A stretch of 64,000 nt of DNA from a virus. Every line of letters starts with the position of its first letter. The stretch's first letter is position 1. Shown here piece after piece: positions 43,991-64,000 of the stretch. The stretch lies in IMG/VR virus record IMGVR_UViG_3300005527_000060; one strand, given 5' to 3'. The translations under genes and the position numbers were made by a program. Under the pieces are notes generated by a model. That model was given only the letters and a program-made list of their open reading frames with translations. It had not been told where the DNA came from and searched no databases.

Positions 43991-44100
43991 AAATCATAAT
44001 CTTGTACATATATTAAAAAAATAAGTCTGACGCACTAAGTTTAATATAACATTCTTCTTCATATTTTATTGATCTTTTATAAACTAGTATATTGTCCAAT

Positions 44101-44421
44101 TCATTTTAGCTTTGCAATAGCTCTTTTATTGTTATATAAATTCATTCTAGGAACAGCATCAATTTCTAACTGTTCTAGTATTAACAGTCTTTGTTTTGTT
44201 ATATTTCTCTCAGCCATTACTAAAACATTAAAACTAAAGTTAATTAGTCCATATTTGTTAAAGTCTGCTTGCAGTTTTTTATTAGAGTGTTTATTAATTA
44301 ATAAAGAGATTAAATGACTATTCCACCTAATCATCATATCAATAGAACTGCCAATATATTTTTTATTAGTAGGTATACAAGTAATACAATATATACCTAC
44401 TAATTTTATTCTTCTATTCAT
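44101..44421 (-). CDS. free-standing GIY-YIG nuclease-domain protein
   Basis: VGIYCITCIPTNKKYIGSSIDMMIRWNSHL contains GIY...YIG...R...H/N arrangement; 106 aa, TGA stop. Confidence 0.5.
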   Translation of the reverse strand: MNRRIKLVGIYCITCIPTNKKYIGSSIDMMIRWNSHLISLLINKHSNKKLQADFNKYGLINFSFNVLVMAERNITKQRLLILEQLEIDAVPRMNLYNNKRAIAKLK

Positions 44422-44477
44422 TGTTTATTAAGTTTGTATATAATATGTTTTATTAAAACACAAACTTAATATGTAGT

Positions 44478-45044
44478 CTATAAAGACTTAGCAACAGATG
44501 CTAATAACTTATTGTCATATTGATTGGGGTATGTTGTCTTAAAGTAATTCATGACATCTTTAATATTAGTTAAGTTATTATCTTTAATAATAGTTAACAT
44601 ATACTCTTTAGTAAAGGCTTTAGGAAGTAGGCTATTTAAATAGTCTAACTCTCTAATTAATGATTGAAGATTACTATTAGTTGGATTTAGAGACAGTATT
44701 TGTTCAAGGGTTAGTTGATTATAAGTATAAGATACTTGCACTTTTTCACCCTCCTCATTTACTTTATCTTCTGCTAAAGCAACTAAATCTCCAACATCTT
44801 TATCACTCTTACTAACAATAATTATTGCAGCCTTTCTTGCAACATTAAACCTTTGTTTAACCGTCTCCAAAAAGATATTCTCATCTATTGAAGTTATATC
44901 AATTAAACTACTTAAGCTTTTAGCTTTAGTTCTTAGAGAAGACAATAAAGATTGTTTAAATACAAACTCTTCATTGTCTTTAGTATTACTAGCTAATCTA
45001 ATTTGTTTTATAGATTCTAATAGTTGTTCAACTTGTTTAATCAT
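44478..45044 (-). CDS. hypothetical protein
   Basis: 188-aa ORF, TAG stop. Confidence 0.35.
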   Translation of the reverse strand: MIKQVEQLLESIKQIRLASNTKDNEEFVFKQSLLSSLRTKAKSLSSLIDITSIDENIFLETVKQRFNVARKAAIIIVSKSDKDVGDLVALAEDKVNEEGEKVQVSYTYNQLTLEQILSLNPTNSNLQSLIRELDYLNSLLPKAFTKEYMLTIIKDNNLTNIKDVMNYFKTTYPNQYDNKLLASVAKSL

Positions 45045-45838
45045 TATTTAGTTGTTGGTAGAGATGGAGCTTGAAGGATAATAGGAGTATTAGATGTTCT
45101 ATTACCAAACACAAAAGTGTTGCCATTCCACTTCTCAATTGCTTTTTGTTCTAGAATTTGTGGAGTTAAAGAATCAGACAAGATCTTATTTTGTTGAGCC
45201 AAGATCTTAGCAGTCTCAGCTTTAATAACTGCTGCTTCTTGTTCCTGTGTAGCAATAGCTTTAGCTTCAATTGAAGCCTGAACTTCTGGATCTAAAACAA
45301 TACCAGTAATTGCCAAATTCTGTAGATTAATAATAGCTTGATTAGCAAGAGAAACATTAATAAGTTCAATAATTTCTTGTGAAACTGCAGCCTGATTATT
45401 AATAATATGAGTCATTGAATACTTTGAGATTACTTGTTTCACGGCTGCTAGCAAATAAGGCTCAAGAGCTGTTGCATCAATATAAGCAGCATCTTTAGCA
45501 AGATCACCAGTAATAAGAAGGTTGTTCTTTACTGCAGTTGCAAGATGTGCAGGGTTTACATTATAAGTAGAAGTTGCTGTAATTGTGATTTTTTGACCAT
45601 CAGAACTTAAACCAGAAAAGCTTTCTGGTAGAGCTTTAATAGATACATCTACAGGCTTTGTAGCGGTAATAAAAGGCACTACAAAGTTTACACCAGGAAC
45701 AAGAATTTGAGGCTGAACCTCACCAAAAATATATTTTACATGCACAGTACCTTGTTGTACAGTAGCAACAGATCCAATTGCAGCAGCAATAACAACTAAA
45801 CCAGCAACACCCAAAGCAGAAAGAGTTAAATACTTCAT
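45044..45838 (-). CDS. SPFH/band-7 (prohibitin/HflC-like) membrane protein
   Basis: N-terminal TM helix (LSALGVAGLVVIAAAIGSV), then QQGTVHVKYIFGEVQPQILVPGVNFVVPFI (SPFH core), then Ala/Gln-rich coiled coil. Confidence 0.6.
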   Translation of the reverse strand: MKYLTLSALGVAGLVVIAAAIGSVATVQQGTVHVKYIFGEVQPQILVPGVNFVVPFITATKPVDVSIKALPESFSGLSSDGQKITITATSTYNVNPAHLATAVKNNLLITGDLAKDAAYIDATALEPYLLAAVKQVISKYSMTHIINNQAAVSQEIIELINVSLANQAIINLQNLAITGIVLDPEVQASIEAKAIATQEQEAAVIKAETAKILAQQNKILSDSLTPQILEQKAIEKWNGNTFVFGNRTSNTPIILQAPSLPTTK

Positions 45839-45868
45839 TTTTTTTATTTTTATAATTGATTAATTGTA

Positions 45869-46240
45869 TTACTTTAGATATAAGATACTAAAGTAATTAA
45901 TGAGTAAATGCATAGTTTGATCAGCAAGAATTAATAACCAGAAGCTTATATATTCTGGAGTACCCTGTGGATAAATTTCTTCTAATGATTGTGGATTAAA
46001 ACCACCAAATAAGTAGTTTTTAGCCTTAGTAACATAAACGGCCAATCTTAATCTATCAATGACAACATGTGTAAAAGCAATTACAAATAAAGCATTAGGA
46101 CTAGCTATAAATATAAAAGGAAGGCTATACATAATTCCATGATATACAGCCCACCAGTTAGATTTAGTTTTATTAATAGCCATATTATGACTTTGTAAAA
46201 CATAATCTCCAACTAAGTGAGCAAGAAGTTGTTCATACAT
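45869..46240 (-). CDS. hypothetical membrane protein
   Basis: 123 aa with hydrophobic segments. Confidence 0.35.
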   Translation of the reverse strand: MYEQLLAHLVGDYVLQSHNMAINKTKSNWWAVYHGIMYSLPFIFIASPNALFVIAFTHVVIDRLRLAVYVTKAKNYLFGGFNPQSLEEIYPQGTPEYISFWLLILADQTMHLLINYFSILYLK

Positions 46241-46245
46241 ATTTC

Positions 46246-46440
46246 TTATTTAATCTTTGATATTTTTTCTTGAAGAAGTTTAAAAAAGCTCTCATTGAGT
46301 ATAATATTAACAACATTATTTTCTTCACCAAAAGATAATGTAAAATCTTCTAAAGAATCATGTCTATCCGTGTTTTTTATTATTTCTAGCCTGTCAGCTT
46401 CAATTTCAATTATCTGAGAAGTTTTTGTTGTTGTTCTCAT
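46246..46440 (-). CDS. hypothetical small protein
   Basis: 64-aa ORF. Confidence 0.3.
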   Translation of the reverse strand: MRTTTKTSQIIEIEADRLEIIKNTDRHDSLEDFTLSFGEENNVVNIILNESFFKLLQEKISKIK

Positions 46441-46446
46441 ATATAT

Positions 46447-46647
46447 CTATTCATATAACCAACTAAAGGACCAAACAAGAACTATCAAGCCAGAAACAAA
46501 ATAAAGTAGAGATACAAGCTTTGCTGTCATAAATGGAGATAAACAAATTGCTGTTAATCCAACAATAAACCACATGCCAAAGCGTATTTGATTTAAAGTA
46601 AGACCATCAATAAAGTTAACAAGACGTTTAAGATGTCTTTTAATCAT
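46447..46647 (-). CDS. small membrane protein
   Basis: 66 aa, two predicted TM helices, TAG stop. Confidence 0.35.
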   Translation of the reverse strand: MIKRHLKRLVNFIDGLTLNQIRFGMWFIVGLTAICLSPFMTAKLVSLLYFVSGLIVLVWSFSWLYE

Positions 46648-46716
46648 AATAATCTATTCTCTTTTACTATTAAGGATACATATTTTTTAGAGTTAATTGA
46701 TTATGCTTATTCATGC

Positions 46717-46992
46717 TCAATTTTCCATTACAGACTTAATAATAGACATAATATCAAAGAAGTCATTATATTTAATAACCTCATTATTAATTATTTCAAA
46801 GTCATTATCATCTAACAATTCTTTATTACTTAAGGTATTAAATCTTATACTAATTAAGTTAAACTCTTGTAGTAATTTATAATAAACTTTATCAGTTAAC
46901 TTATATCTAAGTAAACCTGCAAGGTTAGAGTCTTTATGAAACTCTAACCACAGTTTACAACAAGTAACATACTTAATAAAACTATCATTCAT
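46717..46992 (-). CDS. hypothetical small protein
   Basis: 91-aa ORF fitting the minus-strand series. Confidence 0.3.
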   Translation of the reverse strand: MNDSFIKYVTCCKLWLEFHKDSNLAGLLRYKLTDKVYYKLLQEFNLISIRFNTLSNKELLDDNDFEIINNEVIKYNDFFDIMSIIKSVMEN

Positions 46993-47001
46993 TATTTATT
47001 A

Positions 47002-47307
47002 TTAGATCTTAATTTGACTGGGAGTAAATAGACTGCCTGAACAATAGTTAATAATAAGCACTGCGCCACTTGTATTTGTAACTTTAATTGGCACTCTATA
47101 AGTATGTCCACTACCACAGCCTAACCATTCTTTATCTAAAGTACTAACAAATGTTAGATTATAAGCAGTCACCTTAGTCTTTATCTCTTGTAATTGAGCT
47201 GATGTTAAAGGACTTGTTAGATCCTTATAAACTGAATGAACTGCAACAAAAGTAATAACAAGTGCTACTGCAATCCAGCCAGAAGCTTCTTTAATATCTT
47301 TCCACAT
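47002..47307 (-). CDS. hypothetical secreted/membrane-anchored protein
   Basis: 101 aa, N-terminal TM/signal-like (WIAVALVITFVAV). Confidence 0.35.
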   Translation of the reverse strand: MWKDIKEASGWIAVALVITFVAVHSVYKDLTSPLTSAQLQEIKTKVTAYNLTFVSTLDKEWLGCGSGHTYRVPIKVTNTSGAVLIINYCSGSLFTPSQIKI

Positions 47308-47309
47308 AT

Positions 47310-48077
47310 TTAATAATTGACAGCTAAGTACTGCTCAACATAGTTTTTATCTTTACTAAACTCAGGAATGTTATTATCAACAACCCACCTAGATCTATAA
47401 ACTGGTTTATCTCCAACATAACAATGAATGTAAGTTTCTTTGATAATACATCTACCTCTTTTATAACTAACAGGTAAATTATTCCAGTTATAGCCTTTCT
47501 CAAAGCACATATCTTGCACTTGAGACATATTCTTTCTATCTAGTTCATTATGACTATATAGAGTTTGTCCTAAAGCTTGGATGCTGTTTTTAATACAGTC
47601 TCTTTGTCTTGCAACAAAGTAATTATTAACCTCAGCTTCTGGATAGTTATTAAATCTGGAGTCAAACTTTGCAAACTTTTGGTTTTCAATTTTAGGTGTT
47701 TTATCACCCCAAATCTTCCAACTACTTAAGCAAAATCTACCACCAGCTTCACTTGCACTTTCGCTGAGCATTTTATTAAGGTTATAATTTCTCCAAGCTT
47801 GTGATTGAAGGTTTTTATAATCATGAAGAAAGACACTTATCTCATCAGATTGAATGTATATCAGTTGACAACCCTGCATTAACTTAGCTAAGAAAATGCC
47901 AGTTTCATCCATTACTTCCATAAATTCAGGACTGAACTTATCCTTTAACTCAGCAGTATAAGAACTAAAGGTAATTCCATCAAGCCTGCCAATAACAGGT
48001 ATTCTTCTTAATAAGTATTGAGTTTGTCTTTCCTCATAATTCTCTTTAAGACGCTTCATTATAGGACAATTAGACAT
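47310..48077 (-). CDS. Thg1-like protein (tRNA-His guanylyltransferase family, 3'-5' nucleotide addition)
   Basis: IPVIGRLDGITFSSYT (Thg1 VVRIDGKKFHEFS motif) and LIYIQSDEISVFL (Thg1 AFGESDEYSFIL motif); 255 aa. Confidence 0.65.
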   Translation of the reverse strand: MSNCPIMKRLKENYEERQTQYLLRRIPVIGRLDGITFSSYTAELKDKFSPEFMEVMDETGIFLAKLMQGCQLIYIQSDEISVFLHDYKNLQSQAWRNYNLNKMLSESASEAGGRFCLSSWKIWGDKTPKIENQKFAKFDSRFNNYPEAEVNNYFVARQRDCIKNSIQALGQTLYSHNELDRKNMSQVQDMCFEKGYNWNNLPVSYKRGRCIIKETYIHCYVGDKPVYRSRWVVDNNIPEFSKDKNYVEQYLAVNY

Positions 48078-48537
48078 AGTTTTTAACAGTATCTAAAATC
48101 AATGAAGCCTTCTTTAGATTGACCTCTTTTTCTTCTGGTGTTAAAGAGTCATAACATACACTAGCTCTGCTATTTTCTACAGGATTATTAGAACTTTCTC
48201 CAATATCTTCAGACCAAATGTTGTGACATACTGCGGCCAAATCAATCTTTAGCTCTGGATCATTTAAGGCATAAAGTTTATCTTCTAGCTCTTTAATGTA
48301 TTTGGAATCCTTGTAGGATGTCCAGCCATCTGTAACAATAATATAAAGTACAATAAAAAACCAAATTAAGCTTACTATGCTATATGTTACTGGATTTCTT
48401 GTAACTAGATACATAATAAACAAAGAAACTGTTTGAACCAGCCACAATAGATATACAACTTTAACATATCTATTATATGTTAGAAAGTCCATAATACTTG
48501 CAAGATTTCTCATCAACTTTCTTTTATTAAACATCAT
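48070..48537 (-). CDS. hypothetical membrane protein
   Basis: 155 aa with 2-3 TM helices. Confidence 0.35.
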   Translation of the reverse strand: MMFNKRKLMRNLASIMDFLTYNRYVKVVYLLWLVQTVSLFIMYLVTRNPVTYSIVSLIWFFIVLYIIVTDGWTSYKDSKYIKELEDKLYALNDPELKIDLAAVCHNIWSEDIGESSNNPVENSRASVCYDSLTPEEKEVNLKKASLILDTVKNYV

Positions 48538-48577
48538 AAAACTCCTATTTATTTTCTAATTTAAATCAAATCTATTT

Positions 48578-49162
48578 TTAAGGAAGGTGAACATTTGTAT
48601 TACAAGTAAAAGTATCACCCTGAGTTATAACTTCATCTAATATATTAGAAGTAATAAACTCTGCATTTTTTATAACGGTTTCTATATCTTCAGATTCTGT
48701 AAAATCTCCTAATACATAATCTAATATAGATGTGTCATTAAGAGGCTTTCCAATGCCAATCTTCAACCTATTAAAGCTTTCAGTTCCTAGCTCTTCAATG
48801 ATACTTTTAATACCATTATGACCGCCTGAACGTCCCTTCTCTCTAAATCTAATAGTACCTAAAGGAAGTGTTATATCATCATATATAACAAGTATATTAG
48901 ACGGATTAATCTTTAATTCTTTACAGATAGCTGAGACACATAACCCACTATTATTCATCATAGTAGTAGGTTTAGTTAATATAACTAGTTTAGTATAACC
49001 AACTCTAATAATACCTTCAAAGCGCTTATCAAAGAAATCTATAGAATGCCAAACACCATAGCTAGACATTAGTTGATCAATTACTTTATAGCCAACATTA
49101 TGTCTATTATTAATATATTGTTGGCCTGGATTACCCAGGCCAACAACCAAGTTTATTTTCAT
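48578..49162 (-). CDS. pth: peptidyl-tRNA hydrolase
   Basis: MKINLVVGLGNPGQQYINNRHNVGYKVIDQL matches the bacterial Pth N-terminal catalytic region (GLGNPG...RHN); 194 aa. Confidence 0.85.
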   Translation of the reverse strand: MKINLVVGLGNPGQQYINNRHNVGYKVIDQLMSSYGVWHSIDFFDKRFEGIIRVGYTKLVILTKPTTMMNNSGLCVSAICKELKINPSNILVIYDDITLPLGTIRFREKGRSGGHNGIKSIIEELGTESFNRLKIGIGKPLNDTSILDYVLGDFTESEDIETVIKNAEFITSNILDEVITQGDTFTCNTNVHLP

Positions 49163-49176
49163 TTGTTTATATAAAT

Positions 49177-49468
49177 TTAATCTTCTTCATCCTCTTCCCA
49201 GTCCCAATCATTCTGATCATCATATGTATTAGAACTAGATCTTACATTTTGATTTTCTTCAGAGATTTTAAATAAAACATCCTTTAATTCTCCCTCAGCA
49301 AACTTATACTCTGAAATAGGTATATACTTACAGACTCTTAGCTTACTATTATTATAATCTCTAGGAATAGCCACAATGTCTTGTGGATCAACTTCAACTA
49401 GAATAATTGCATCTCTTTCAGAAACAGCATTACCATAATGAGGTATATAGCCCCAACAACAAACATGT
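49177..49468 (-). CDS. exon 2 of an intron-split hypothetical gene (exon 1 = 50584..51159)
   Basis: Supplied ORF 49177..49374 extends in-frame upstream to 49468 (..HVCCWGYIPHYGNAVSERDAIILVEVDPQDIV|AIPRDYNN..) without any start codon. Begins right after the intron 3' motif GATAACAAAATTG. Confidence 0.5.
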
Positions 49469-50575
49469 CAATTTTGTTATCCTAAAGGTTTTTTATCCTC
49501 TAGTTCTATATCTTATTGCTTTGATATAGTTCAGCATATATCTTTATCCTTAATAATTAAGGATATCCCGCACTCTTGGGATTAGTAATATTACTAATAA
49601 GTTTTTTAAACTCTGGATTATATTCCTTTACAGGGTTCACCATACCTATGCGTTGCGATGTTATATAGCTTTTATTCTATATAATTATCTCAGTGTTGTC
49701 CTAATTAAATTAAATTTATCCTTCTTTCTTTGTAAATAAAAGTTAGCGTCTTTATAAATATAATTACCAAATTCAATAATATGACTTTGAGTTCTTATAT
49801 TTAAAGTAGCACAAGTCTTTCTATATAACATTGTTGATTTTATTGTTTTTGGTAAACATTCAGCAATGCTTTTTAGTATAGAATCTGACCCATTAACAAT
49901 TATAATATTAGCAAGTCCTGTTGCTTTTCTAAAAGAAATACAGCCATCTCCATCAAAATAACCTCTAATAACATGATGAATCAAATCATTATCTATTTTT
50001 GGAATTTCAATATCTGCATATGTTTTTCTAGGACCAACTCCATATTTTGCTAAAGCATTTACAATTCTAAAGGAATTAATTCTAAATATTATTTGAGGTT
50101 TTCTATTTAAAGCGCCTTTTGTATTATTAAGTATCTTTTTTAAACCTTTAGGATATATATAATCTCTATATAAATCAATAATATATTCATCAATGTTTGA
50201 TAAACAAATACCAATTCTATTTTTATCATATACACATCCATCTGCTAAAAAGAATCCAAATAAATAAGCTTTTATTTCATTATCAATGTTATCAAAAAAG
50301 TCATGAGCAACTTCTTTATTCTTAGGCCAACTAATAGGCAATTTCTCATTAAATTTCTTTAATAAAGACTGAATATTTTGATAACAAGTCTCATAATGAT
50401 TTGCTATTTCGTTTAAAGAAAAACCTTCTAAATTTAATTTAATTATTTCATTTAAAGTTTCTTGATTATATTTAAGCATATAAGTATCCATGTATTAATG
50501 GGTATATTATATGTAATATAAATATTACTTTAATGAGCAAAAGATTTTCACTGATATTGCGGGATTTATTACCTA
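49469..50575 (-). mobile_element. group I-like intron with LAGLIDADG homing endonuclease ORF
   Basis: 3' end GATAACAAAATTG| shared with two other introns. S-like AAGATATAGAAC. 7-bp long-range pairing AATCCCGCAAT (50565-50555) / GTGCGGGAT (~49580-49572) bracketing the HEG ORF. Hairpin ATCCTTAATTATTAAGGAT (~49555-49573). 5' splice site not located precisely. Confidence 0.5.
49685..50491 (-). CDS. LAGLIDADG homing endonuclease (double-motif), intron-encoded
   Basis: LFGFFLADGCVYD and IRGYFDGDGCISF motifs; 268 aa. Confidence 0.75.
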   Translation of the reverse strand: MDTYMLKYNQETLNEIIKLNLEGFSLNEIANHYETCYQNIQSLLKKFNEKLPISWPKNKEVAHDFFDNIDNEIKAYLFGFFLADGCVYDKNRIGICLSNIDEYIIDLYRDYIYPKGLKKILNNTKGALNRKPQIIFRINSFRIVNALAKYGVGPRKTYADIEIPKIDNDLIHHVIRGYFDGDGCISFRKATGLANIIIVNGSDSILKSIAECLPKTIKSTMLYRKTCATLNIRTQSHIIEFGNYIYKDANFYLQRKKDKFNLIRTTLR

Positions 50576-50583
50576 TTAATTAC

Positions 50584-51159
50584 TTAATAGGAGGCCATCA
50601 TGTTTAGCCCTTCACTGCAAGTATTATCAATATTATCATCTACCTTGTTTCTAGGCATTGATACTGGAACACCAAACTCATGTTTAAATGTATGAGTGTA
50701 CAAATCAAGAAATACATCTTTCTCTTTAGTTCTACCAACAATCTTATATAGAATTAAGTTACCATTTTCATTAATAACTACATTATTAGCTTCTATAAAC
50801 TCTGAAAGGAAGTTTAAAGGTCTATAAGAAGGATTAAGCTTTAACTTATTCCAAAAGTTAATTAGAGGTTGAATATTAGTTAGTCTTTGCTCATACATAG
50901 TAATAATCATTCTATTAAGAGCTTTTGGAAGATTCTCTCCATTATAAGTAACTAATCCATTAGTAATCTCAATGCCTAAATTTTCTGCAATAACACTAGT
51001 AACATTTAAAAGTTTATATAATTCTTCTTCTTCATTATTTAATGCTAATTCTAATACTTGTGCATACTTAGCATCTTCTCTATTAATTGTGTAAGTTTTT
51101 CCTTTTACAATTACAGACAATGTAGTAGGAAAAATAAGGTAGTTAACGATGTTAGACAT
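50584..51159 (-). CDS. exon 1 of intron-split hypothetical gene (3' boundary / 5' splice site uncertain)
   Basis: 191-aa ORF whose last codons (..LNMMASY*) probably read into the intron. Downstream exon 49468..49177 lacks a start codon. Confidence 0.45.
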   Translation of the reverse strand: MSNIVNYLIFPTTLSVIVKGKTYTINREDAKYAQVLELALNNEEEELYKLLNVTSVIAENLGIEITNGLVTYNGENLPKALNRMIITMYEQRLTNIQPLINFWNKLKLNPSYRPLNFLSEFIEANNVVINENGNLILYKIVGRTKEKDVFLDLYTHTFKHEFGVPVSMPRNKVDDNIDNTCSEGLNMMASY

Positions 51160-52755
51160 TAGTTTGATTTTTGTTGTAATAATCTGTTTGCTTAATATAA
51201 TTACTCATTAATATATTTTGAGAACTATTGTTTTTAATACTTTGTTCTATTAAAGGATATGTTTGTTTAATCTTTGCCACTAAATCTAATAAATCTATTT
51301 CAGCCTTCTTTATTTTTATTAAACCTGCCTGATATAGATTTTTAAGTAAGTAGTGTTTATGCAAATAAGGAGTATACTTATTAGACTCTAAAAATAAAGA
51401 GGTTATAATACTATCTGGATTTTCTCTAATAAATAAGTCTTTATTTTCTAAATGAAGTAGTGTTGATCCACCGTATATTCTTGAATAATATATAAAATAA
51501 TTTGTGTCAATCTTATCAGCTAGTTTTTGCTGTATCTCTTCAATTAAATCTTTCCAACAATGCTTTACTAAAGAGGGATCATTAACAACATATATATCTT
51601 CTTCATTACAATAGTCAATAAGCTCATGTTTAAATATGTAAAAACTGCTTAAGTTATATACTTGTTTAGAAATATAATAGTAACTTTTATTAGTATCAAT
51701 ATTTAACTCTCTACCTAATACTCCTGGATATGCTGACAATCTATTGCATTTAGCATTAATAGATACTCTTTTAGTAGTATTAGTTGTCTTTTTAACCTCA
51801 AGATCTACCTTAGGAATAACACTAGAAAGCAGTCTAAGATTAAATATTTTATTGTCAATATTATTAACTAAACAGGTGTTTTCTAGTTCTTCTGCAGGAA
51901 TGTATTTACTTAAAGCTTTGACAGTTAAAGCATAAGATACATCATTATAATAATAAGTATAAGTCTTATTAAAGTAATGATACTTATTCTTACATTGAAT
52001 TATATTCCCCTTCCCCTTCTTTGTCTTATTAAAACATATAACTTCTTTTAGCCAGCTATTATAAGATATAGGATTATCCTTCCACTTAATTGGCCCAAAG
52101 AGTAAATTACTACTTGATAAGAAAGATTGAACATCATCCCAATGTTCAAACATTTCCATTTGTTCTTTTACATATTCTTTATATTCTGCAACAATATTAG
52201 ACAAACACTCAGCAATATATACTTTAGTCTTCTGACTTAATTGTATATCTTTATCTGCTGATTGATCAACTCTACCAATTTCAATATCAAATATAAACTT
52301 TTTATTTGTATTGACTTTTGACAAGTAATCTAGGTCTTGTGAATTTAAAACTTCTTTATAATTAGATAGCTCTATTTTATTAGGTAAGCCGCCAATCAAG
52401 CCAAATAAATTATTAGGATAAGTATCACTTCTAACAATTTTAAAATGTCTTCCTTCTTTAATAACTTGTTCTGGGACAACTAATTCCTTATCAACTGCAA
52501 CTAAAACATTATATAAATATCTAGTATTATTAGTTACATATCTACAAATATTAATAACATCATTCTCTTTAATCTCAAAAGATATCTCTACCCCTGTATC
52601 TTGAGTTGTTTTCTCTTTAGATAGCAATGAACAAAAGACCTTATTATTGTCTTTAGATATTACATATTCACATCTAACTCTGCCTTCTTCTTCTTCTGTA
52701 ATACTAATTACCACATACATATCAGTATATGCTAAAGGAGACATTCTACCTAGAC
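51152..52755 (-). CDS. large hypothetical protein; probably the 3' exon of a multi-intron gene
   Basis: 544-aa ORF (51152..52786) whose first codons abut the S element/3' end of the upstream intron. Likely exon start ~52755 after ..CAAGATAAACATGTTG|. No recognisable catalytic motif. Confidence 0.45.
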
Positions 52756-52834
52756 CAACATGTTTATCTTGTATTACTACAAGCATGGACTATATCATCA
52801 TTAACTATAAAAATAGTTAATGCTGGACGCTTTA

Positions 52835-53443
52835 CTATATATTTATTGCTTTATACTTCATACATTCAATTTGATTAACATAAGGTCTTACTATTTCTAA
52901 GAATCTTCTACCTTCTTTAGTAGACATTCTTAGTCTGTATAGATTTTTATGCTTTGTTATCTTCCAAGTAATATCCCATTTATCTTGAAAATATTTAACT
53001 ATTGTTTCATTTTCTTCTTTTGATAAATAAGTACTAAGAATTAATTCCCAAGCATGTATCTTGCCATTTCTTTTTTTAGGATATAAAGAACCATCATCCA
53101 TCCACCAAATAGCTAATCCTATAGGAGTTAGTCTATTTAAAGCTTTAAGAGGTATAGTTTTTACTTTATTTTTATATAAATATCTATGTAAAACTCTAAA
53201 ATATTTATGTCCTTTTTCTAAGACAACGGCAGGATATCCATTATTAACTATTTGTCTAACATTTATATTAGATTGAAAGATATTTCTAATTAAATTAGCT
53301 TTCCACTCTAAATATTCTTTTTGTTTTAGACAGTGAGTAATACTTAATCTACCAGATAATGAAGCATGACTAGGTTTTGCAACACAACCATCTCCAAAAA
53401 TAATTCCCATCAATATTGAAATGTTTTCTTTTGTTTTTAACAT
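52835..53443 (-). CDS. LAGLIDADG homing endonuclease
   Basis: LMGIIFGDGCVAK and LAIWWMDDGSLY motifs; tandem TAG-TAA stops. Confidence 0.7.
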   Translation of the reverse strand: MLKTKENISILMGIIFGDGCVAKPSHASLSGRLSITHCLKQKEYLEWKANLIRNIFQSNINVRQIVNNGYPAVVLEKGHKYFRVLHRYLYKNKVKTIPLKALNRLTPIGLAIWWMDDGSLYPKKRNGKIHAWELILSTYLSKEENETIVKYFQDKWDITWKITKHKNLYRLRMSTKEGRRFLEIVRPYVNQIECMKYKAINI

Positions 53444-53570
53444 ATCTTTTCACACTCTTGGTGTGGATATAAAATAATATAGATAGTCTCTGAACCTTCT
53501 CTTTCCTACAGAGCTTGGCTGCTGATTGCCCTTAATCTTAATTAGTGGGGTTTCCAGCAATTCATCCAGT

Positions 53571-54233
53571 TTAAAGTGGACATGGTTTTTTGTTATACTG
53601 ATTATTTTTAGTATGTGCTGATTTCCAAGTAAGATTATTTATTACATCCCACTTTCTTTGCATATATAAAGCATCATTATTTGTCATTAGATTAACTATA
53701 TTTATCATACTAGCTTGACGACCTACTTTTAGTTCATATTGATTTCTTCTTGAAACCAAACTGTATCTAATATCATATTCATCATATATTCCAATTAAGT
53801 ATTTAAAGAAAGAAGCGCAGTTTCCATAAATTGTAATTTTTTTATTATTATTAGAATCTACATAAACATTGCCATCTCCGTCAAAAACACCTCTTAAGAA
53901 ATCTCCTGGATATAGTAAAATACCAGGATTACCTAAAAGATGTATATTTTTTATACTTTTGCTTGGCACTAAACCATGACTCATTAAATCAATAACATAT
54001 TGTTTACTATAACAATAGATATACCAACTCTTTTCATCTTTAGACTTTTTAGGGGCACAAAAGAAAGGGAAAACATCTATTATTTTATATAATAATTCAA
54101 CATCATTAATCTTTATTCTGCAAGCATATTGTTGTCCTATATTATTTATAATAGTTCCATCACTATATATAAGACCTAGTAAATAAGCTTTATTTGGAGT
54201 ATCAATACTTTTAAACTCATCAGTATATTTCAT
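53571..54233 (-). CDS. LAGLIDADG homing endonuclease (double motif)
   Basis: AYLLGLIYSDGTI and LRGVFDGDGNVYV motifs; stop 10 nt upstream of the intron P element. Confidence 0.7.
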   Translation of the reverse strand: MKYTDEFKSIDTPNKAYLLGLIYSDGTIINNIGQQYACRIKINDVELLYKIIDVFPFFCAPKKSKDEKSWYIYCYSKQYVIDLMSHGLVPSKSIKNIHLLGNPGILLYPGDFLRGVFDGDGNVYVDSNNNKKITIYGNCASFFKYLIGIYDEYDIRYSLVSRRNQYELKVGRQASMINIVNLMTNNDALYMQRKWDVINNLTWKSAHTKNNQYNKKPCPL

Positions 54234-54300
54234 TATTAGATAATAAATTTATTATCTAATTATATCAAAAAATACATAGTTAAACATCAACTATATATGT

Positions 54301-54489
54301 TTATCCACCTAATAGATCATTACTATTAGACTTTGTTGAGTAACCAACCTTAGTATAATAATTAGTCATAAAGTCCCTACTTAGACCTTTAGCATAATCT
54401 CTAATAACAAGATGATTATCAAAATGATTAGGTAGAAATATATCTATAGGTTTTTTAATATCATGCTTTATATGTTCATCTAATGCGTT
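54301..54489 (-). CDS. short exon/ORF between two introns (..LYDNKLNALDEHIKHDIKKPIDIF..LLGG*)
   Basis: Frame opens right at the 3' end of intron B (GATAACAAATTG|AACGCA) with no ATG (track used TTG). Ends in TAA just before the first LAGLIDADG ORF. Confidence 0.3.
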   Translation of the reverse strand, partial: NALDEHIKHDIKKPIDIFLPNHFDNHLVIRDYAKGLSRDFMTNYYTKVGYSTKSNSNDLLGG

Positions 54490-54830
54490 CAATTTGTTAT
54501 CATAAAGGCTCTTTATCCTTTATTTCTTTATATTTCTATAAAGTTCGGACTATATCATCATCCTAATTAGTTAGGATGTCCTGCGCTCTTGTCTCCTTAT
54601 CACCATATATTATAAAAAATACTTAGGCTCGTTATGTTTTTATAACATAATAGATTATTTAATCTAAGAGATAGTCTCTGAACATTCAAATACATTTCTG
54701 TATAAGCTTTGCTGCTGATTGCCTCGACTTAAGTATTTATGAATACTTGTAAGGGGTTTCCAGCAATTCACAGGATTTTTCAATAAGAATTACTTCTTAA
54801 AGCTCCAACTGTCTTATATTATTTATTTAC
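54490..54830 (-). mobile_element. group I intron (no ORF) with the same P/Q/R/S core as the two introns above
   Basis: P AATTGCTGGAAACCCC (54765-54752), Q GGCAATCAGCAGC (54723-54712), R GTTCAGAGACTATCTC (54684-54673), S GATGATATAGTCCGAAC (~54560-54546), terminal GGATAAAGAGCCTTTATGATAACAAATTG (54518-54490). Confidence 0.6.
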
Positions 54831-54835
54831 TTAAA

Positions 54836-55006
54836 TATAATAATATTTTTAGAGAACGTTTCTTTAAAAGCCGCCAATAATGGATTAGTATAAATATTAT
54901 TTCTTAGAATGCCTAATATTAAAGCAGTTTGACTTTCATCTATAGAAAAGAAACTCTGTTTTAAATTAGACTTAAACTCTTCTTGTACAACTGGTATCAT
55001 TGTTTT
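54836..55006 (-). CDS. small hypothetical ORF (57 aa) abutting the intron 5' side
   Basis: MIPVVQEEFKSNLKQSFFSIDESQTALILGILRNNIYTNPLLAAFKETFSKNIIIFK*. Not in track (<60 aa). All three frames closed before the P element. Confidence 0.25.
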
Positions 55007-55164
55007 ATATTAAGAACAAAATTAACTATTAATAAACAAACTTAAGATTACACTATCTTTCTTTTAAGCTAGGTAACTCTATTTCATTAAATCCTAAAGC
55101 TTTAACTTTAGCTTTATATTTATTATTAATGACTAATATCTCATCATTTACCCATTCAATATCA

Positions 55165-55632
55165 TCAGGTAACAATTTTAATATTTCCCCTGTTTAGATC
55201 ATCCTTAAGCTGCTGTCTTAAATGAGTTATATATTCTACAATCCATTTATGACCAGCATCTACTTGTTTGCCACTAAAAACATAATAATGATCAAATGGT
55301 AAAACAGATTCAACAAATTGAATGTGAAATGGGCTGCCACAAATCTTAGTTTTGATTGCAACTTTAATACATTCTTTAAACAGATCATCTGAAATATCTA
55401 CAACTTTTGGTAAAGATTTGCCTAACTTCTTAGCAGCAAAACCAGACATATTTCTCAATCTTTCATCTCTTGTGCTAATGTAATACCACAAGCCTTCAAC
55501 TGATTCAAATCTGCCTAATCCCCCAAGAACAATAGGATATCTATACCAATTGGATAAAAAACAACCTAGTACTGTTTTACCTTGAGAATAGATATTTATA
55601 TGATCTACACCATCATTATTACTGTTATACAT
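55165..55632 (-). CDS. NADAR (YbiA/DUF1768) domain protein
   Basis: INIYSQGKTVLGCFLSNWYRYPIVLGGLGRFESVEGLWYYISTRD aligns with YbiA INFYS..GDFSNFAAWPIKVDGKTWPTSEHYFQAQK. 155 aa, TGA stop. Confidence 0.55.
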   Translation of the reverse strand: MYNSNNDGVDHINIYSQGKTVLGCFLSNWYRYPIVLGGLGRFESVEGLWYYISTRDERLRNMSGFAAKKLGKSLPKVVDISDDLFKECIKVAIKTKICGSPFHIQFVESVLPFDHYYVFSGKQVDAGHKWIVEYITHLRQQLKDDLNRGNIKIVT

Positions 55633-55634
55633 AA

Positions 55635-56066
55635 CTAACTTTTATCCAAAATATTAATAATTTTAAAGGCTTCTATAGCTTCTGATTCAAAGTCTTGTTC
55701 TTGTTGTCTTTGCTCTAATATTCTTTTATCTATTGATACTAAAAAAGAATTAATCTCATCATTAAAGAAATTTAAAGCCGCAATTAGATCCTTTGAATTA
55801 TCAAAGGAACTAAATATTGTACAGACTTCATTAGAAACATTATAATCAATTCTAAATAGATGAACTGATTTTTCTTTATAGACAGTATAAAAGGTTATTC
55901 TTCTTTCTAAAGATCCTGTCCAAGTAGTATATTTAATATAAATATTTTTATTATAAAAATACTCTACAAAATCTTTATTTTCAAAGAAAGAAGAAATTGA
56001 TGTAATAAAAGTAAGAAATCTTTTTACATCAGTGTCAAAGTCATTTTTATGATAACAAGCTGCCAT
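55635..56066 (-). CDS. hypothetical protein
   Basis: 143-aa ORF, TAG stop overlapping the start region of the NADAR gene. Confidence 0.35.
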   Translation of the reverse strand: MAACYHKNDFDTDVKRFLTFITSISSFFENKDFVEYFYNKNIYIKYTTWTGSLERRITFYTVYKEKSVHLFRIDYNVSNEVCTIFSSFDNSKDLIAALNFFNDEINSFLVSIDKRILEQRQQEQDFESEAIEAFKIINILDKS

Positions 56067-56072
56067 AGTTAT

Positions 56073-56240
56073 TATTTCCTATGTGGACAGCCACCATTAC
56101 CACAATAATTCTCAGCAATATCTTCATCTGTTTCACCACATTTCCTACATTTAAAAGCTGTAATTCTTCTTTTAGTTAGAACTACTTTATATTGCTTTTT
56201 ACTCCTTGATACAGGCTTTGTTACTGTACAAATCATACAT
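56073..56240 (-). CDS. small zinc-ribbon protein (55 aa), not in supplied track
   Basis: MICTVTKPVSRSKKQYKVVLTKRRITAFKCRKCGETDEDIAENYCGNGGCPHRK* with CxxC....CxxxxC. Confidence 0.35.
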
Positions 56241-56249
56241 TTTTACCTA

Positions 56250-56486
56250 CTATTTAATAACTGTTAATACAATCTGATCATTCTTATTGAAGGAGAACTC
56301 AAGATTTAAAGTTATTGTCTTTTTATCAACAATAACTCTATCTTCTAAGTTAGTTTCTATGATAGCTAAAATACCATTGTGCAAGTCAGTTACACAATCA
56401 CAATCAGCACAAAACACAGAGTTAAGATGTTTTAATATCAAACATCTTAACTCTTCACCTATATCTCTAATCTCTGTCATTTGCAT
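56250..56486 (-). CDS. hypothetical small protein
   Basis: 78-aa ORF ending in tandem TAG-TAG. Confidence 0.3.
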   Translation of the reverse strand: MQMTEIRDIGEELRCLILKHLNSVFCADCDCVTDLHNGILAIIETNLEDRVIVDKKTITLNLEFSFNKNDQIVLTVIK

Positions 56487-57120: not shown

Positions 57121-57390
57121 TTAGTTTTTAAAAGAGTAATTTTCTATTATTTGTATTTGTAATTCACTAATAAGACTAGTGTTTGGTTTTTCTGGTAATT
57201 TTGTATCAATAAAAGCTTTTTCTAATCTAGCTTCTAGTTGTGTTACATAAATTAATATTTCATCATATGTAACATTACCTTGTCTAATAGCTTTCAAATA
57301 GTCAACATCACCAACAGCCTTTCTGTCAACTAAGACTTGTTGACTTTCAACTATCTCACAAGCCATAGTATATAGCCTTACAGCGTGTCC
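57121..57390 (-). CDS. hypothetical protein; candidate 3' exon of the upstream nucleotidyltransferase gene
   Basis: Track ORF starts at TTG 57393, but the sequence immediately upstream is the conserved intron terminus GATAACAAAATTG|, so coding probably starts at 57390 as an exon (..GHAVRLYTMACEIVESQQ..). Confidence 0.35.
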   Translation of the reverse strand, partial: GHAVRLYTMACEIVESQQVLVDRKAVGDVDYLKAIRQGNVTYDEILIYVTQLEARLEKAFIDTKLPEKPNTSLISELQIQIIENYSFKN

Positions 57391-58425
57391 CAATTTTGTT
57401 ATCTTATAGGCTCTTTATCCTATAATTCTATATGTCACCATATAGTTCAGACTATTTCTTCGTGTTTATATTAGATAAACCGTTCCCCTGCGCTCTTGGA
57501 TAATTTTATTGGCATAGATTGCTCCTTAGCCTCATATCTAGTCGTTAGACCTTTCTACATTCTTTCAAATATAGCTTGGTAAGGAATTGTCTTTATTCAA
57601 AGAGTTTCTCCTTTTCACAGAGTTTTAACACCCCAGAGTATTCTAACTGATCATATATAGTTTGTTTACCAATTCTTTGATAATGTATTTCAATTAAATG
57701 AATATTTTGTTCTTTTAGCAATTCTCTTTTAATCTGATCAATTTTTCTAACATCATTTAGTCTAGATTTATCCCAAAATTTAGTTTCTTTATAATGTTGT
57801 TGACCTTGAATTTCTATAGCTACTTTAGCATCAAAATAATATCTATCTAATTCTAAAAACATATTAGTTTCAGGATTCTTTAGTAAAAGACCTTTTTCAA
57901 GTAATTGTTTTCTTCCATTATCAATAAAGTTTTTATCTAATATGAATTTATCAAGTAATGATTTTACATATATTTCAAGACAAGACTTAGTATTCTTAAC
58001 ATATAAATTTAATGCTTTTAAATGTTGTACTAGAGTTATGTTATGAAATTTAGGTAAACATGATACTAACTGAGATTTATGTTCTATACTTATTATTGAT
58101 GGATCTAAGGGAAAATACCCATACTTATCAACTAACTTATATATTTCAGTATTTACATTATTAATATCTTTATAATAATTCTTAGGTGTAAACTTAATCT
58201 CATAATTTATATAAGTTAAAAATTCACTAAATGATAATCCAGTTCTTTGTATAGCACAAAGTAAATAATTATAGCCATTATTTTTTTAAGAATGTATTAC
58301 TTAGATATTGATCTTCATGTTTTTCTGAAACTAACATAAATTCATTCTTGATATTTTCAATTTTAGTTAAATAACCCTTTTTGTGTAAACGCATAAACTA
58401 TATAATAAACAATAATATTATTATA
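57391..58425 (-). mobile_element. group I-like intron containing a frameshifted homing-endonuclease-like ORF
   Basis: 3' terminal module GGATAAAGAGCCTATAAGATAACAAAATTG (57420-57391) nearly identical to the intron B terminus. S-like AAATAGTCTGAACTATA (~57455-57440). Lies between the 58426 ORF and the 57390 exon. Confidence 0.5.
57593..58394 (-). pseudogene. intron-encoded endonuclease-like ORF disrupted by a +1 frame change in an A7 run (or sequencing error)
   Basis: MRLHKKGYLTKIENIKNEFMLVSEKHEDQYLSNTFLKK stops at TAA inside A7 (plus T7 58281-58287). The +1 frame continues open for ~230 codons into track ORF 57593..57862 (..YYFDAKVAIEIQGQQHYKE.., Vsr/DUF559-like). Confidence 0.4.
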
Positions 58426-59292
58426 CTATAGTTTAAGGTGTTTACCATCATAACCTACCTTAGCTTCTAGTTCAGCTCTCTTAGAGTTTCTATTAGCCTT
58501 CCAGGATTGATAGTTCTTATATTTATTTAACTCCTTAAGATACAATTTAGTTCTCTTAAGATAGTCCATATAATTAGAATCAGCCTTGACTAAATAGCCA
58601 ACATACTGTTCAACCTCATCTGGAACATAGTTTCTTATAAGCAGACCTTTATAGTCCACCTTACTAAACAGCTCTTCTAAGGTTGGCTCTCTATCTAGAT
58701 GAAATGTTTTAGCATCTAATAATAAGACATATAATAATTCTAAAAACATATTATAGTCTTTTCTTAATAGATTCTCATCTAGGCCAAAATCTTCTGGTTT
58801 AGGTTGTTCATTAAAAAAGTTAGGGTTCTTATTATATTCTAATAACCACCCTCTATGAGTGTTACACTTATTAATTTGGTCTTTAGCATACTGACCGTAA
58901 GACCATCTTGCTGTCTTACATAGAAAGGCATTTCTAAAATTAATTAGAGGATAAATAACTGGATCTAATACATCATATTCAGGGCTATAAAGTAAGTCTA
59001 AACAGTTTGGATTATTCTGTAATAGCAGTTCTATCATCTTTGTAAGTTCTAAGATCTTACTATCTTGGCCTGTTAAATAAGGATACATACAAGGCTCAGA
59101 ATCAGTAAATAATTGATTCTTTTCCTGTAAGTAGAAAGGTTCTGGGGTGATACCAATATAATATTGTTTAGGGGCAATACAAATGCCTCTTCTATCAACA
59201 TCAGAACCTTCTACACTTGTACCATATAAAGTAGAGCCAACTTTAGTTAGAAGAACAATACTCTGTTCTAACTCCAGTCTAGTATTAAACAT
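58426..59292 (-). CDS. Pol-beta-superfamily nucleotidyltransferase (GS-x10-DxD); possibly the 5' exon of a split gene
   Basis: N-terminal GSTLYGTSVEGSDVDRRGICIAP matches the minimal NTase signature G[SG]x9-13[DE]h[DE]h. 288 aa; TAG stop sits at the intron boundary. Confidence 0.5.
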   Translation of the reverse strand: MFNTRLELEQSIVLLTKVGSTLYGTSVEGSDVDRRGICIAPKQYYIGITPEPFYLQEKNQLFTDSEPCMYPYLTGQDSKILELTKMIELLLQNNPNCLDLLYSPEYDVLDPVIYPLINFRNAFLCKTARWSYGQYAKDQINKCNTHRGWLLEYNKNPNFFNEQPKPEDFGLDENLLRKDYNMFLELLYVLLLDAKTFHLDREPTLEELFSKVDYKGLLIRNYVPDEVEQYVGYLVKADSNYMDYLKRTKLYLKELNKYKNYQSWKANRNSKRAELEAKVGYDGKHLKL

Positions 59293-59295
59293 ATG

Positions 59296-59856: not shown

Positions 59857-59897
59857 ATTAATCTCATTAATTTTATTATTTTTTTTTAATTACACAA

Positions 59898-60918: not shown

Positions 60919-60931
60919 AATATATTTATAG

Positions 60932-60949
60932 TATATATATATATATATA
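60932..60949. repeat. (TA)9 microsatellite
   Basis: tatatatatatatatata seen directly; flanks the non-coding island. Confidence 0.9.
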
Positions 60950-62054: not shown

Positions 62055-63111
62055 TTATTTTGAGTTTTGAGTTTTGATTTTTAAGTTTTCTAATATGAAT
62101 TCTGTTAGATATTTACCTTCCAGAAATCCATATACATCTGACGTTTGACATTCTGTTCTATCATCCTTTACAAGGGTATATGGATGAATAGAATATGTTC
62201 TTATTCTACTTCCAAATCCAGTGTCTAATACACCTTCTTTAGTACTTTGCAGCTCTGTAAATTCATCATTATCTTTTATTAGTTGTAGTCTAGAAGTTAA
62301 TAGTTTTAAGGCTCTTTGCTTATTCTCATGCTGAGATCTAGTCTCTTGACATTTAACTGCAATACCAGTTGGTATGTGAGTTATTCTAATAGCAGTTTCA
62401 ACCTTATTAACATTTTGTCCTCCTTTTCCACCACTTCTAAAAGTATCTATTATTAGATCTTTAGGGTTAATTGTTAATTGAGAATTAACAATTATAGGTT
62501 CAACTTCAACACCACAAAAAGAGGTATGTCTTTTATCCTTTCCACCATAAGGTGAGACTCTTTGCAGTCTGTGATTTCCTCTTTCATTCTTTAAATAACC
62601 ATAAGAATAATCTCCTTCAATAAGTACACAGGCTGATTTAATACCTGTTACATCTCCTTCTTGAATATCAATTAAACTATACTTATAGTTATTATCTTTT
62701 AACCAATTATAATACATTTGAAGTATTTGTTTGGCCCAATCACAAGCTTCAGTTCCACCAGCTCCTGCTATAACATATAACATACAATTATTAATATCAT
62801 ACTTAGCTGTGAATAGATTATTAATCTGCCAAGTATGTAAAAACAAATCTAATTTAGATGTAATATTTAACACATCTTGTTCTAGTTCTAGTTCTAGTTC
62901 TTCTGCAACTTCTAAATCTTCTATTAATTTAAAATTAGCTTTTATAGTATCAATTAAACTTGTTTTGTTACTTAGAATTTGAAGTAAGTCTAGATTAGAC
63001 CAATCATAATTTAATTCTAAATTAATATTAATTACATCTTCTTCTAATTGTCTAAAGACTTTGTAGAAGAGGTTGAATTTTATTATAATATGTAGAAGTA
63101 ATTGTTTTCAT
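62055..63111 (-). CDS. prfB: peptide chain release factor 2 homolog with programmed +1 frameshift (join 63111..63055, 63053..62055)
   Basis: Body: RF2-type tripeptide region RVSPYGGKDKRHTSF, GGQ motif RSGGKGGQNVN, CMLYVIAGAGGTEACDWA (cf. E. coli CYLDIQAGSGGTEAQDWA). Frame 0 from ATG 63111: MKTITSTYYNKIQPLLQSL then TAG. The +1 frame is open from 63053 for 333 codons into the track ORF. Confidence 0.8.
63051..63057 (-). promoter_or_regulatory. prfB +1 frameshift site CUU UAG A
   Basis: Same slippery CUU-U as the E. coli site CUU UGA C, but the zero-frame stop is UAG. Confidence 0.7.
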
Positions 63112-63389: not shown

Positions 63390-63390
63390 A

Positions 63391-63785: not shown

Positions 63786-63859
63786 ATCCTACATACCAGA
63801 TTTGAACTGGTGATACCCAACGTGAAAGGTTGGTGGCATAGACCGCTTGCCCAATGTAG
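63786..63859 (-). tRNA. tRNA-Glu (anticodon UUC)
   Basis: Minus-strand cloverleaf: acceptor CCTACAT/ATGTAGG, D arm GGCA-AGCGGTCTA-TGCC, anticodon arm CCAAC-CTTTCAC-GTTGG (anticodon TTC), T arm ACCAG-TTCAAAT-CTGGT. No encoded CCA. Confidence 0.65.
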
Positions 63860-63933
63860 GTTATTTATAGAGAACAAGATGATTTTGTTTTTTTTTAGCA
63901 TAAAAAAGTATTAATTGCTGAATCATCTTTATA

Positions 63934-64000
63934 TAGTCCTAGAAAGATTTGAACTTTCACTGAATAGATTCTAAGTCTACCGCCTCTTCCAATTGGGCTA
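63934..64000 (-). tRNA. tRNA, 5' end beyond the window; anticodon loop CTTAGAA (anticodon UAG)
   Basis: Minus strand: U8-A9, D arm GCCC-AATTGGAAG-AGGC, anticodon arm GTAGA-CTTAGAA-TCTAT, 5-nt variable loop, T arm GAAAG-TTCAAAT-CTTTC, acceptor 3' strand TAGGACT + A. Anticodon UAG would be Leu(CUN), but the short variable arm is atypical for bacterial tRNA-Leu. Confidence 0.45.

Follow-up and report, generated by a model that had tools for sequence, protein, structure and literature searches.

The 64,000-nucleotide (nt) stretch of the virus record IMGVR_UViG_3300005527_000060 (hereafter the window, meaning the stretch at its full length) encodes, close together on its minus strand, a Thg1-like protein (TLP) and a peptidyl-tRNA hydrolase (Pth). 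A sequence-only reading of the window had noticed this pair together with a nucleotidyltransferase (NTase), a frameshifted prfB gene for release factor 2 (RF2) and two tRNAs, and had proposed that they make up a phage kit for the upkeep of tRNAs and ribosomes. We followed up this proposal computationally, and the features concerned are collected in Table 1. Each noticed element was recovered at or close to its given position, with matches well beyond chance.

The source of the window is an uncultured jumbo phage of ~216 kb. A contig of 216,004 bp (L008; ENA ERZ27247957 k141_467024) is 100% identical to window positions 52055-64000 and runs 8.9 kb past the window end, and a database protein with 100% identity to the RF2 is present on contigs of up to 228 kb. 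We examined 73 kb, consisting of the 64-kb window and the L008 extension beyond the window end, with ~143 kb of the genome lying outside. The region is an unbroken minus-strand gene run with 29% GC. At least nine RNA-repair or translation-linked genes lie inside ~29 kb, and none was found among the larger open reading frames (ORFs) in the first 44 kb of the window. The remaining window genes include a primase, helicases, DNA polymerase A, RecA, rIIB and tail-fibre-like genes. Neither a megablast of 20 kb against GenBank phages nor an IMG/VR close-relative scan with the TLP protein gave a match, and relatives (the L-numbered contigs) were reached only via the protein database.

Table 1. Coordinates of the RNA-repair and translation-linked features in the window and of the genes beside them.
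Feature	Position	Strand	Basis or remark
188-aa protein, YqeY/GatB-like C-terminal domain	44478..45044	-	phrog_1460 'tRNA amidotransferase' E = 2.7e-9
SPFH/Band-7 protein	45044..45838	-	PF01145 E = 4e-27; in most clade relatives, not L094
Bacterial-type TLP, 255 aa (predicted)	47310..48077	-	PF04446, phrog_4717, 4KGK, AlphaFold2 (AF2) model
155-aa predicted membrane protein	48070..48537	-	Between Pth and TLP; no Pfam or PHROG match
Canonical bacterial-type peptidyl-tRNA hydrolase (Pth1), 194 aa	48578..49162	-	PF01195, solved Pth structures
RlaP exon 2 (predicted), 89 codons and stop	57121..57390	-	phrog_388 positions 250-331 of 351, E = 1.4e-10
Group I intron in RlaP gene (predicted), 1044 nt	57391..58434	-	Rfam Intron_gpI
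RlaP (RNA-ligase-associated Pol-beta NTase) exon 1 (predicted), 286 codons	58435..59292	-	PF10127, phrog_388
prfB (RF2), +1 programmed frameshift	62055..63111	-	PCRF, RF-1 domains
tRNA-Glu(UUC)	63787..63860	-	ARAGORN; Rfam tRNA 57 bits
3' part of 74-nt tRNA, anticodon UAG (called Leu)	63934..64000	-	Rfam tRNA 42 bits; cut by window end

The TLP gene and its place beside Pth

The product of the gene at 47310-48077(-) is, by sequence and model, a bacterial-type TLP and a predicted 3'-5' RNA polymerase. It matched PF04446 with 60.1 bits (cut-off 29.2; E = 2.7e-16) over profile positions 6-130 of 130, and phrog_4717, 'tRNA-His guanylyltransferase', with E = 3.7e-66. The RLDGxxF and SDEIS motifs on which the sequence-only reading had relied read GRLDGITF (D33) and QSDEIS (D78, E79). 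These three metal-binding carboxylates are invariant across an alignment of 56 homologues and align with the identical residues in the motifs of the TLP of Bacillus thuringiensis (BtTLP; PDB 4KGK/4KGM). BtTLP is also the closest solved protein, with ~39-41% identity over the full length and a common fold (4KGK; E = 2.6e-45 with the single sequence, E = 1e-90 with the family profile). The AF2 model made from the 56 homologues had a predicted local distance difference test score of 94.5. Its top Foldseek match was 4KGM (E = 1e-24; TM-score 0.85/0.94; rmsd 1.6 A), and all 32 matches with E <= 0.001 were Thg1 or TLP chains. Profile and structure agree that the protein is Thg1-like, as had been read from the motifs.

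Eukaryotic Thg1 structures fitted the model less well (TM-score ~0.7), with 18-20% identity to the Thg1 of Candida, human and yeast. In true Thg1 the HINNLYN motif reads the tRNA-His anticodon, with its His stacking on anticodon base G36. This motif is missing from the phage protein as it is from BtTLP, and the aligned stretch reads IKNSIQA (residues 162-168). Given BtTLP as the closest match, the weaker match to eukaryotic Thg1 and the missing HINNLYN motif, the protein was classed with the bacterial-type TLPs. The two proteins do differ: the ATP-activation lysine K43 of BtTLP aligns to D46 of the phage protein, which has K45 and K47 on either side, and the phage protein has a 10-residue insertion around residues 120-135. 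It is also phage-encoded, with an activity that is predicted.

The hydrolase beside it is a canonical bacterial-type Pth, as had been claimed. It matched PF01195 (E = 1.1e-56; profile positions 1-173 of 183) and solved bacterial Pth proteins, the best being 4QT4 (E = 5e-40), with E = 3.5e-28 for Escherichia coli 2PTH. The catalytic motifs GNPG, RHNVG, YDD and GGHNG (Asn10, His20, Asp93, Asn114) all align to solved Pth. TLP had been placed two genes from Pth; the proximity stands, with only one gene, that of the 155-aa predicted membrane protein, between them. There is an 8-nt overlap between the stop of this gene and the TLP start. Few phages have Pth1: it matched 21 of 50,697 phage records, largely fragments without annotation. 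A 2021 survey of jumbo phages likewise found Pth1 in one jumbo phage only, with PTH2 widespread (PMC7824862).

The gene order Pth, 155-aa gene, TLP is kept in the close relatives L001-L003 (79-98% nucleotide identity). Within this order the TLP gene itself is variable. A LAGLIDADG_2 endonuclease is inserted directly upstream of it in L002 (region 9034-10732 of that contig), and its 5' half (window 47643-48069) is strongly divergent in both L002 and L003, between flanks of ~95% identity and in genomes that are otherwise 94-98% identical. In L003 (9906-10651) a stop codon shortens the TLP at its N-terminus to 216 aa, and the protein begins beyond the catalytic Asp; this same product is present on five contigs. 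These features point to a recombination hot spot with ongoing decay at the TLP spot. A possible loss of Pth in L003 was rejected: N letters in the scaffold account for the gap, and Pth has an intact 3' end.

Pth homologues led to more distant members of the syntenic clade (L092, L093 and L094). Both genes are present in L092 (Pth 55% identity, TLP 54%), separated by three small ORFs. On L093, a 257-kb contig (Pth 62%), and L094 (Pth 48%), rIIB, Pth, the 155-aa gene and the YqeY-like gene are present and TLP is absent, so the 155-aa gene is not TLP-specific. A 91-aa ORF fills the slot in L094, between homologues of the 155-aa and 101-aa genes. The syntenic position of Pth is unchanged across clade relatives, at identities as low as 48%. 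Because Pth is kept where TLP is missing, Pth is a backbone gene and TLP an inserted accessory. They are not co-inherited and do not make up a module, and their co-occurrence in related genomes is broken in L093 and L094, where TLP is missing, and in L003, where it is truncated, with Pth retained throughout. The slot in which TLP has been gained or lost is variable and rich in homing endonucleases, and the adjacency of TLP to Pth appears incidental. Translation genes seem to gather in the slot beside Pth: L092 encodes, two genes upstream of Pth, a class I aminoacyl-tRNA synthetase (8180-9538; tRNA-synt_1e, CysRS-like, 452 aa).

RNA-end and translation genes elsewhere in the block

The sequence-only reading had described a Pol-beta-type NTase with a GS-x10-DVD motif at 58426-59292(-), which might act on tRNA 3' ends. 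The motif is present as G19 S20 ... D31 V32 D33, and the ORF matched PF10127 (56.7 bits, cut-off 23; E = 3.8e-15) and phrog_388 (E = 4.5e-30; positions 35-222 of 351). It falls in RlaP, an RNA-3'-end family, and not among the antibiotic NTases or CD-NTases, which upholds the tie to RNA ends. The ORF is not, however, the whole gene and corresponds to exon 1 only. The predicted exon 2 lies in a 90-aa ORF (57121-57393) and matches the C-terminal part of the PHROG matched by exon 1. Exon 1 ends ...GYDGKHL with its last base U at 58435, and exon 2 begins GHAVRLY... at 57390 with a G before it, giving the intron a U before the 5' splice site and a G at its end. Joined at the predicted junction CAC CTT|GGA CAC, the exons encode 375 aa, restore the motif GYD.K...H.VRL and are collinear in one tblastn piece (query residues 8-369) with uninterrupted phage RlaPs. 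Invariant RlaP columns are common to the exon-split and the uninterrupted phage proteins.

The putative intron matched Rfam Intron_gpI in a focused search (57428-57668; 44.1 bits, below the gathering score of 50; E = 1e-9), and the match spans the conserved P3-P9 core. A decayed homing-endonuclease ORF lies inside it (57593-57862), at a position where the ORF of relatives is intact and 266 aa long. Searching PDB sequences with the spliced RlaP gave nothing relevant and the Pfam RlaP match stays out of the C-terminal half even with the exons joined; the split rests on PHROG 388 and the collinear tblastn matches. The RlaP gene is predicted to be split by a group I intron, with an intact product expected only if the intron splices out. 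Characterised RlaP enzymes add one or two nucleoside monophosphates to RNA 3'-OH ends and prefer damaged RNAs (PMC12776372).

An RNA ligase is encoded ~5 kb past the window end in L008 (PF09414, E = 1.3e-11; phrog_968, E = 2.8e-29). It lies ~10 kb upstream of RlaP and is not adjacent to it, and in L094 both genes are within 4 kb. The sequence-only reading had set the Thg1-like protein against the Pnk/Rnl-based repair systems of other phages. That contrast fell, because the phage also has an Rnl-type ligase, accompanied by a Ro/TROVE-like protein and Y-like RNAs, and so does not replace Rnl repair with a Thg1-based system. The Ro/TROVE-like gene past the window end encodes a DUF2828/DUF7788 protein (phrog_850 'RNA-binding protein', E = 1.8e-141). 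Directly upstream of it, 4-5 kb past the window end (L008 4160-5050), are ~12 tandem hairpin modules of the form AAAGATnnTTCAGCAA - variable 20-110 nt - AAnnATCTTG, and one copy lies inside the window (63874-63929(-)). The arms of the modules co-vary between copies. Two of the modules hold permuted tRNA-like inserts, one of which is a sub-threshold Rfam YrlA match (39 bits; E = 6e-6). From its sequence the array looks like an unusually large Y-RNA-like array for a phage.

Both tRNAs noticed earlier were recovered. The second, cut by the window end, is completed in L008 (8867-8940) as a 74-nt tRNA. Although called as tRNA-Leu(UAG), it is a class I tRNA that lacks the long variable arm a bacterial tRNA-Leu would be expected to have, and its amino-acid identity is therefore uncertain. 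No tRNA-His was found in the 73 kb examined. Acceptor-stem mismatches, which would suggest 5'-editing, were sought in the phage tRNAs and none was found, the stems being fully paired. The phage tRNAs are nonetheless atypical: the first acceptor pair of tRNA-Glu, and of a tRNA-Leu(UAA) just past the window end, is C1:G72.

The frameshifted prfB likewise proved to be as described, with its N-terminus in another frame and both PCRF and RF-1 domains found. The main ORF (62055-62873(-)) matched PCRF (E = 6e-36) and RF-1 (E = 1e-35) and contains GGQ. As read from the sequence, ORF0 (63111-63052) ends CTT TAG, and the +1 frame leads into the main ORF. The shift site CTT TAG A (63057-63051) differs from the canonical CUU UGA C, the near-universal autoregulatory prfB shift site, and no obvious Shine-Dalgarno-like stimulator was seen upstream of it. 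It is kept in a relative with 88% identity (L095 9680-10726) in which the upstream codons differ. The RF2 tripeptide reads SPY in three RF2s of the phage clade only, compared to SPF in 112 of the 120 best homologues. The SPY motif and the UAG-based site may mean that RF1 senses the shift, or they might reflect an altered stop-codon specificity of the RF2. The pairing of UAG and SPY is the most unusual detail of the gene set.

At the other end of the block, the 188-aa YqeY-like gene abuts the Band-7/SPFH gene. Its L094 homologue has a faint PF09424 YqeY match. Its retention in all clade relatives examined (47-95% identity) makes it a backbone gene, and its product may be another tRNA-binding component, a candidate on the basis of sequence. 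Band-7 proteins are said to be linked to RNA repair, and we treat the Band-7 gene as context only.

TLP in other viruses and the proposed role

Thg1-based repair in a phage had been put forward as new. TLP homologues, however, are found in 151 GenBank phage records, where tRNA-His guanylyltransferase is their usual annotation, in PHROG 4717 and in at least 585 IMG/VR contigs, and a role has already been proposed: Anantharaman et al. 2010 (PMC2904730) and Iyer et al. 2021 (PMC7824862) suggested that phage Thg1, with RlaP, Pth and ROT/TROVE, serves counter-defence RNA repair. Gene neighbourhoods reaching 10 kb to either side of TLP were sampled at the 80 best TLP-bearing IMG/VR loci, which represent 45 lineages at 70% TLP identity. 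RlaP was the most recurrent TLP neighbour found. It lies within 3 kb of TLP in seven mutually divergent lineages (of 45) and less than 100 nt away in three unrelated ones (TLP at L040 3083-3802, L050/L051 10001-10738 and L085 10001-10663). This recurrence suggests that the 5'-end (TLP) and 3'-end (RlaP) NTases may work together. A PTH2-family hydrolase (PF01981; E = 1.5e-20) lies within 3 kb of TLP in five related lineages and an AAA_33 PNK-like kinase in four lineages. Neither Pth1 nor RF2 was found within 10 kb of TLP in any of the 80 loci, and the TLP of Bacillus phages Bc431v3 and G has no Pth, RlaP or ligase close by. Cultured TLP carriers include Bacillus Bastille-like and Caulobacter CbK-like phages.

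The genes described here probably form a loose collection for RNA-end repair and translation maintenance, composed of independent accessories that keep translation running in infection. Family, fold, intact catalytic residues and inheritance pattern were computed in this study; the substrates and the link to defence are inferred. The genes sit in a long minus-strand block of putative early or auxiliary genes. Going by its homologues, TLP would activate a 5'-monophosphate with ATP or GTP and then refill the 5'-truncated acceptor strand of a tRNA, using the 3' strand as template. RlaP would add one or two nucleotides to a broken RNA 3'-OH, after which the ligase would seal the break. Pth1 would recycle peptidyl-tRNA dropped from stalled ribosomes, and RF2 and the phage tRNAs would supplement termination and decoding. 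In combination they would maintain translation while the phage infects its host, plausibly in the face of host defences that cleave tRNAs. Every bacterial and archaeal TLP assayed preferred templated repair of 5'-truncated tRNAs over adding G-1 to an untruncated tRNA-His (PMC6471195). The general idea of a phage kit for tRNA and ribosome upkeep is plausible; the idea of a unit is not, with TLP lost while Pth is kept and with Pth1 and RF2 at none of the 80 sampled loci.

Several observations weigh against the reading as a repair and maintenance collection. More than 30 unrelated ORFs, homing endonucleases and introns are interspersed among the repair and translation genes. Scanning 44000-50600 for promoters and terminators gave results no better than those for shuffled sequence, so that no operon structure can be inferred. 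TLP is dispensable, given that it is lost or truncated in close relatives, and the 73 kb examined yielded no end-healing kinase/phosphatase (Pnkp). The neighbourhoods are weakly to moderately above chance (P = 0.004-0.23 for RlaP and 0.05-0.6 for PTH2), under the conservative assumption of one partner-gene copy per genome and with a range that depends on genome size. We know of no host nuclease that produces 5'-truncated tRNAs during infection, and no experimental study of any phage TLP was found in the literature searched.

In a rival reading the auxiliary genes are unrelated and share no purpose, their closeness reflecting only the habit of large phages to assemble accessory and early genes in a single variable region, with TLP perhaps acting on other RNAs such as the 5' ends of the Y-like RNAs or phage transcripts. 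TLP is an indel in a slot flanked by homing endonucleases and its 5' half is mosaic between genomes of 95-98% identity, its adjacency to Pth is unique to this clade among the loci sampled (0/80 others), and non-tRNA substrates are presumed for some TLPs, e.g., DdiTLP4 (PMC6471195). The whole 30-kb block also lies on one strand, so the shared strand is uninformative. We nevertheless regard an absence of any shared purpose as unlikely, in view of the concentration of at least nine repair or translation-linked genes in ~29 kb compared to none among the larger ORFs of the first 44 kb, and of the recurrence of TLP near RlaP, PTH2 and PNK-like genes in unrelated viral contigs.

A much more specific proposal joins TLP, RlaP, the Rnl ligase and Pth1 in one pathway that would restore tRNAs from both ends, against a putative host defence that trims or cleaves tRNA acceptor stems. 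TLP would rebuild the 5' acceptor strand, RlaP with Rnl would deal with 3' ends or breaks, and Pth would clear peptidyl-tRNA. We consider such an integrated pathway improbable on present evidence. If true, it would be the first Thg1-type phage counter-defence and would provide a physiological role for bacterial-type TLPs, whose natural substrates are, to our knowledge, not known.

A different function for TLP alone would be the maturation of tRNA-His by addition of G-1 opposite C73 on the phage or host tRNA, in place of general repair. This is the standard annotation in the 151 phage records and PHROG 4717, and bacterial and archaeal TLPs are able to add G-1 opposite C73 in vitro (PMC6471195). 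One IMG/VR locus (L034) has a tRNA-His immediately upstream of TLP. Overall, however, tRNA-His lies within 10 kb of TLP in only two of the 80 viral loci, about the level expected for any single tRNA species, and none was found in the 73 kb examined of this phage. The replacement of HINNLYN by IKNSIQA, the closest structure being BtTLP, and the preference of assayed TLPs for 5'-truncated tRNAs over full-length tRNA-His (PMC6471195) also speak against tRNA-His maturation, which we judge quite unlikely. Bacteria usually encode G-1 in the tRNA-His gene, which counts against it as well.

A role for RF2 and the tRNAs in stop-codon recoding, in which a code-switch module would reassign TAG in late genes as in some gut phages, is highly improbable: the prfB shift site does use TAG and release factors are reportedly encoded by recoded phages, but all three stop codons terminate window genes (TAA 62, TAG 14, TGA 9) and coding density is 90% under the standard code with the structural genes included, which largely refutes recoding for the 64-kb window, and no suppressor tRNA is among the tRNAs found (anticodons UUC, UAG, UAA).

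The favoured reading, a loose collection of repair and translation accessories, fits published jumbo-phage predictions and is not a new kind of system. The repair and rescue repertoire described for jumbo phages by Iyer et al. 2021 comprises RNA ligases, RlaP, a CCA-adding enzyme, Thg1, ROT/TROVE and peptidyl-tRNA hydrolase (PMC7824862, section 3.4.9). The predicted sets (PMC7824862; PMC2904730) share with the present phage an Rnl-type ligase, RlaP, Thg1, a peptidyl-tRNA hydrolase, ROT/TROVE with tRNA-like RNA and phage tRNAs, as well as the proposed purpose of countering host tRNases. They differ from it in their usual hydrolase, which is PTH2 and here is the bacterial-type Pth1, and RF2 and the predicted group I intron in RlaP set the present phage apart. 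The features specific to this lineage are the bacterial-type Pth1 in the backbone, the predicted intron-split RlaP and the odd RF2.

Among characterised systems, the T4 Pnkp-Rnl1 pair, which mends PrrC-cleaved tRNA-Lys, resembles the present set in the logic of restoring nuclease-cut host tRNAs and in the combination of a phage RNA ligase (here outside the window) with RlaP, the T4 homologue of which is NrdC.11 (PMC12776372). The differences are that no Pnkp was found here in the 73 kb examined and that TLP would add a 5'-end rebuilding step which T4 is without. Dictyostelium TLP3, which acts in mitochondrial tRNA 5'-editing, offers a parallel in that a TLP refills, from a template and in the 3'-5' direction, the first nucleotides of the acceptor stem (PMC6471195). 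The TLP3 pathway, in contrast, mends genome-encoded mismatches, and with the phage acceptor stems fully paired no need for editing is apparent. A phage with a TLP, RlaP, RNA ligase, Pth1 and Ro/Y-RNA system would be a convenient entry point to the question whether 3'-5' polymerases repair tRNAs in vivo and could reveal which host nucleases these polymerases answer.

Introns, endonucleases and other genes of the phage

The tRNA-Leu(UAA) gene (L008 8429-8840) contains a 329-nt group I intron between U34 and A35, which matched Intron_gpI with 46.5 bits (E = 8e-11) in a focused search. The same tRNA is intronless in L095 (9021-9109). The U34/A35 position is typical of cyanobacteria and plastids, and the intron at this cyanobacterial-type site hints at a cyanobacterial host. 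Cyanobacteria are also among the nearest named cellular sources of homologues for TLP, Pth and RF2, but for RF2 the Ignavibacteria group is at least as close.

One or two group I introns apparently interrupt the rIIA-like gene (52787-55000(-)), with a full Rfam match at 54526-54825 (75.7 bits) and a partial core at 53460-53566, and two LAGLIDADG endonuclease ORFs are inside the gene (53571-54233 and 52835-53443). Its homologue in L092 is uninterrupted and encodes 653 aa. A third LAGLIDADG gene is free-standing (49685-50491). The L008 extension past the window end also encodes a pentapeptide protein, and near the opposite end of the window a class II (B12-dependent) ribonucleotide reductase of 1173 aa (359-3880(-)) has an intein with a LAGLIDADG domain inside it.

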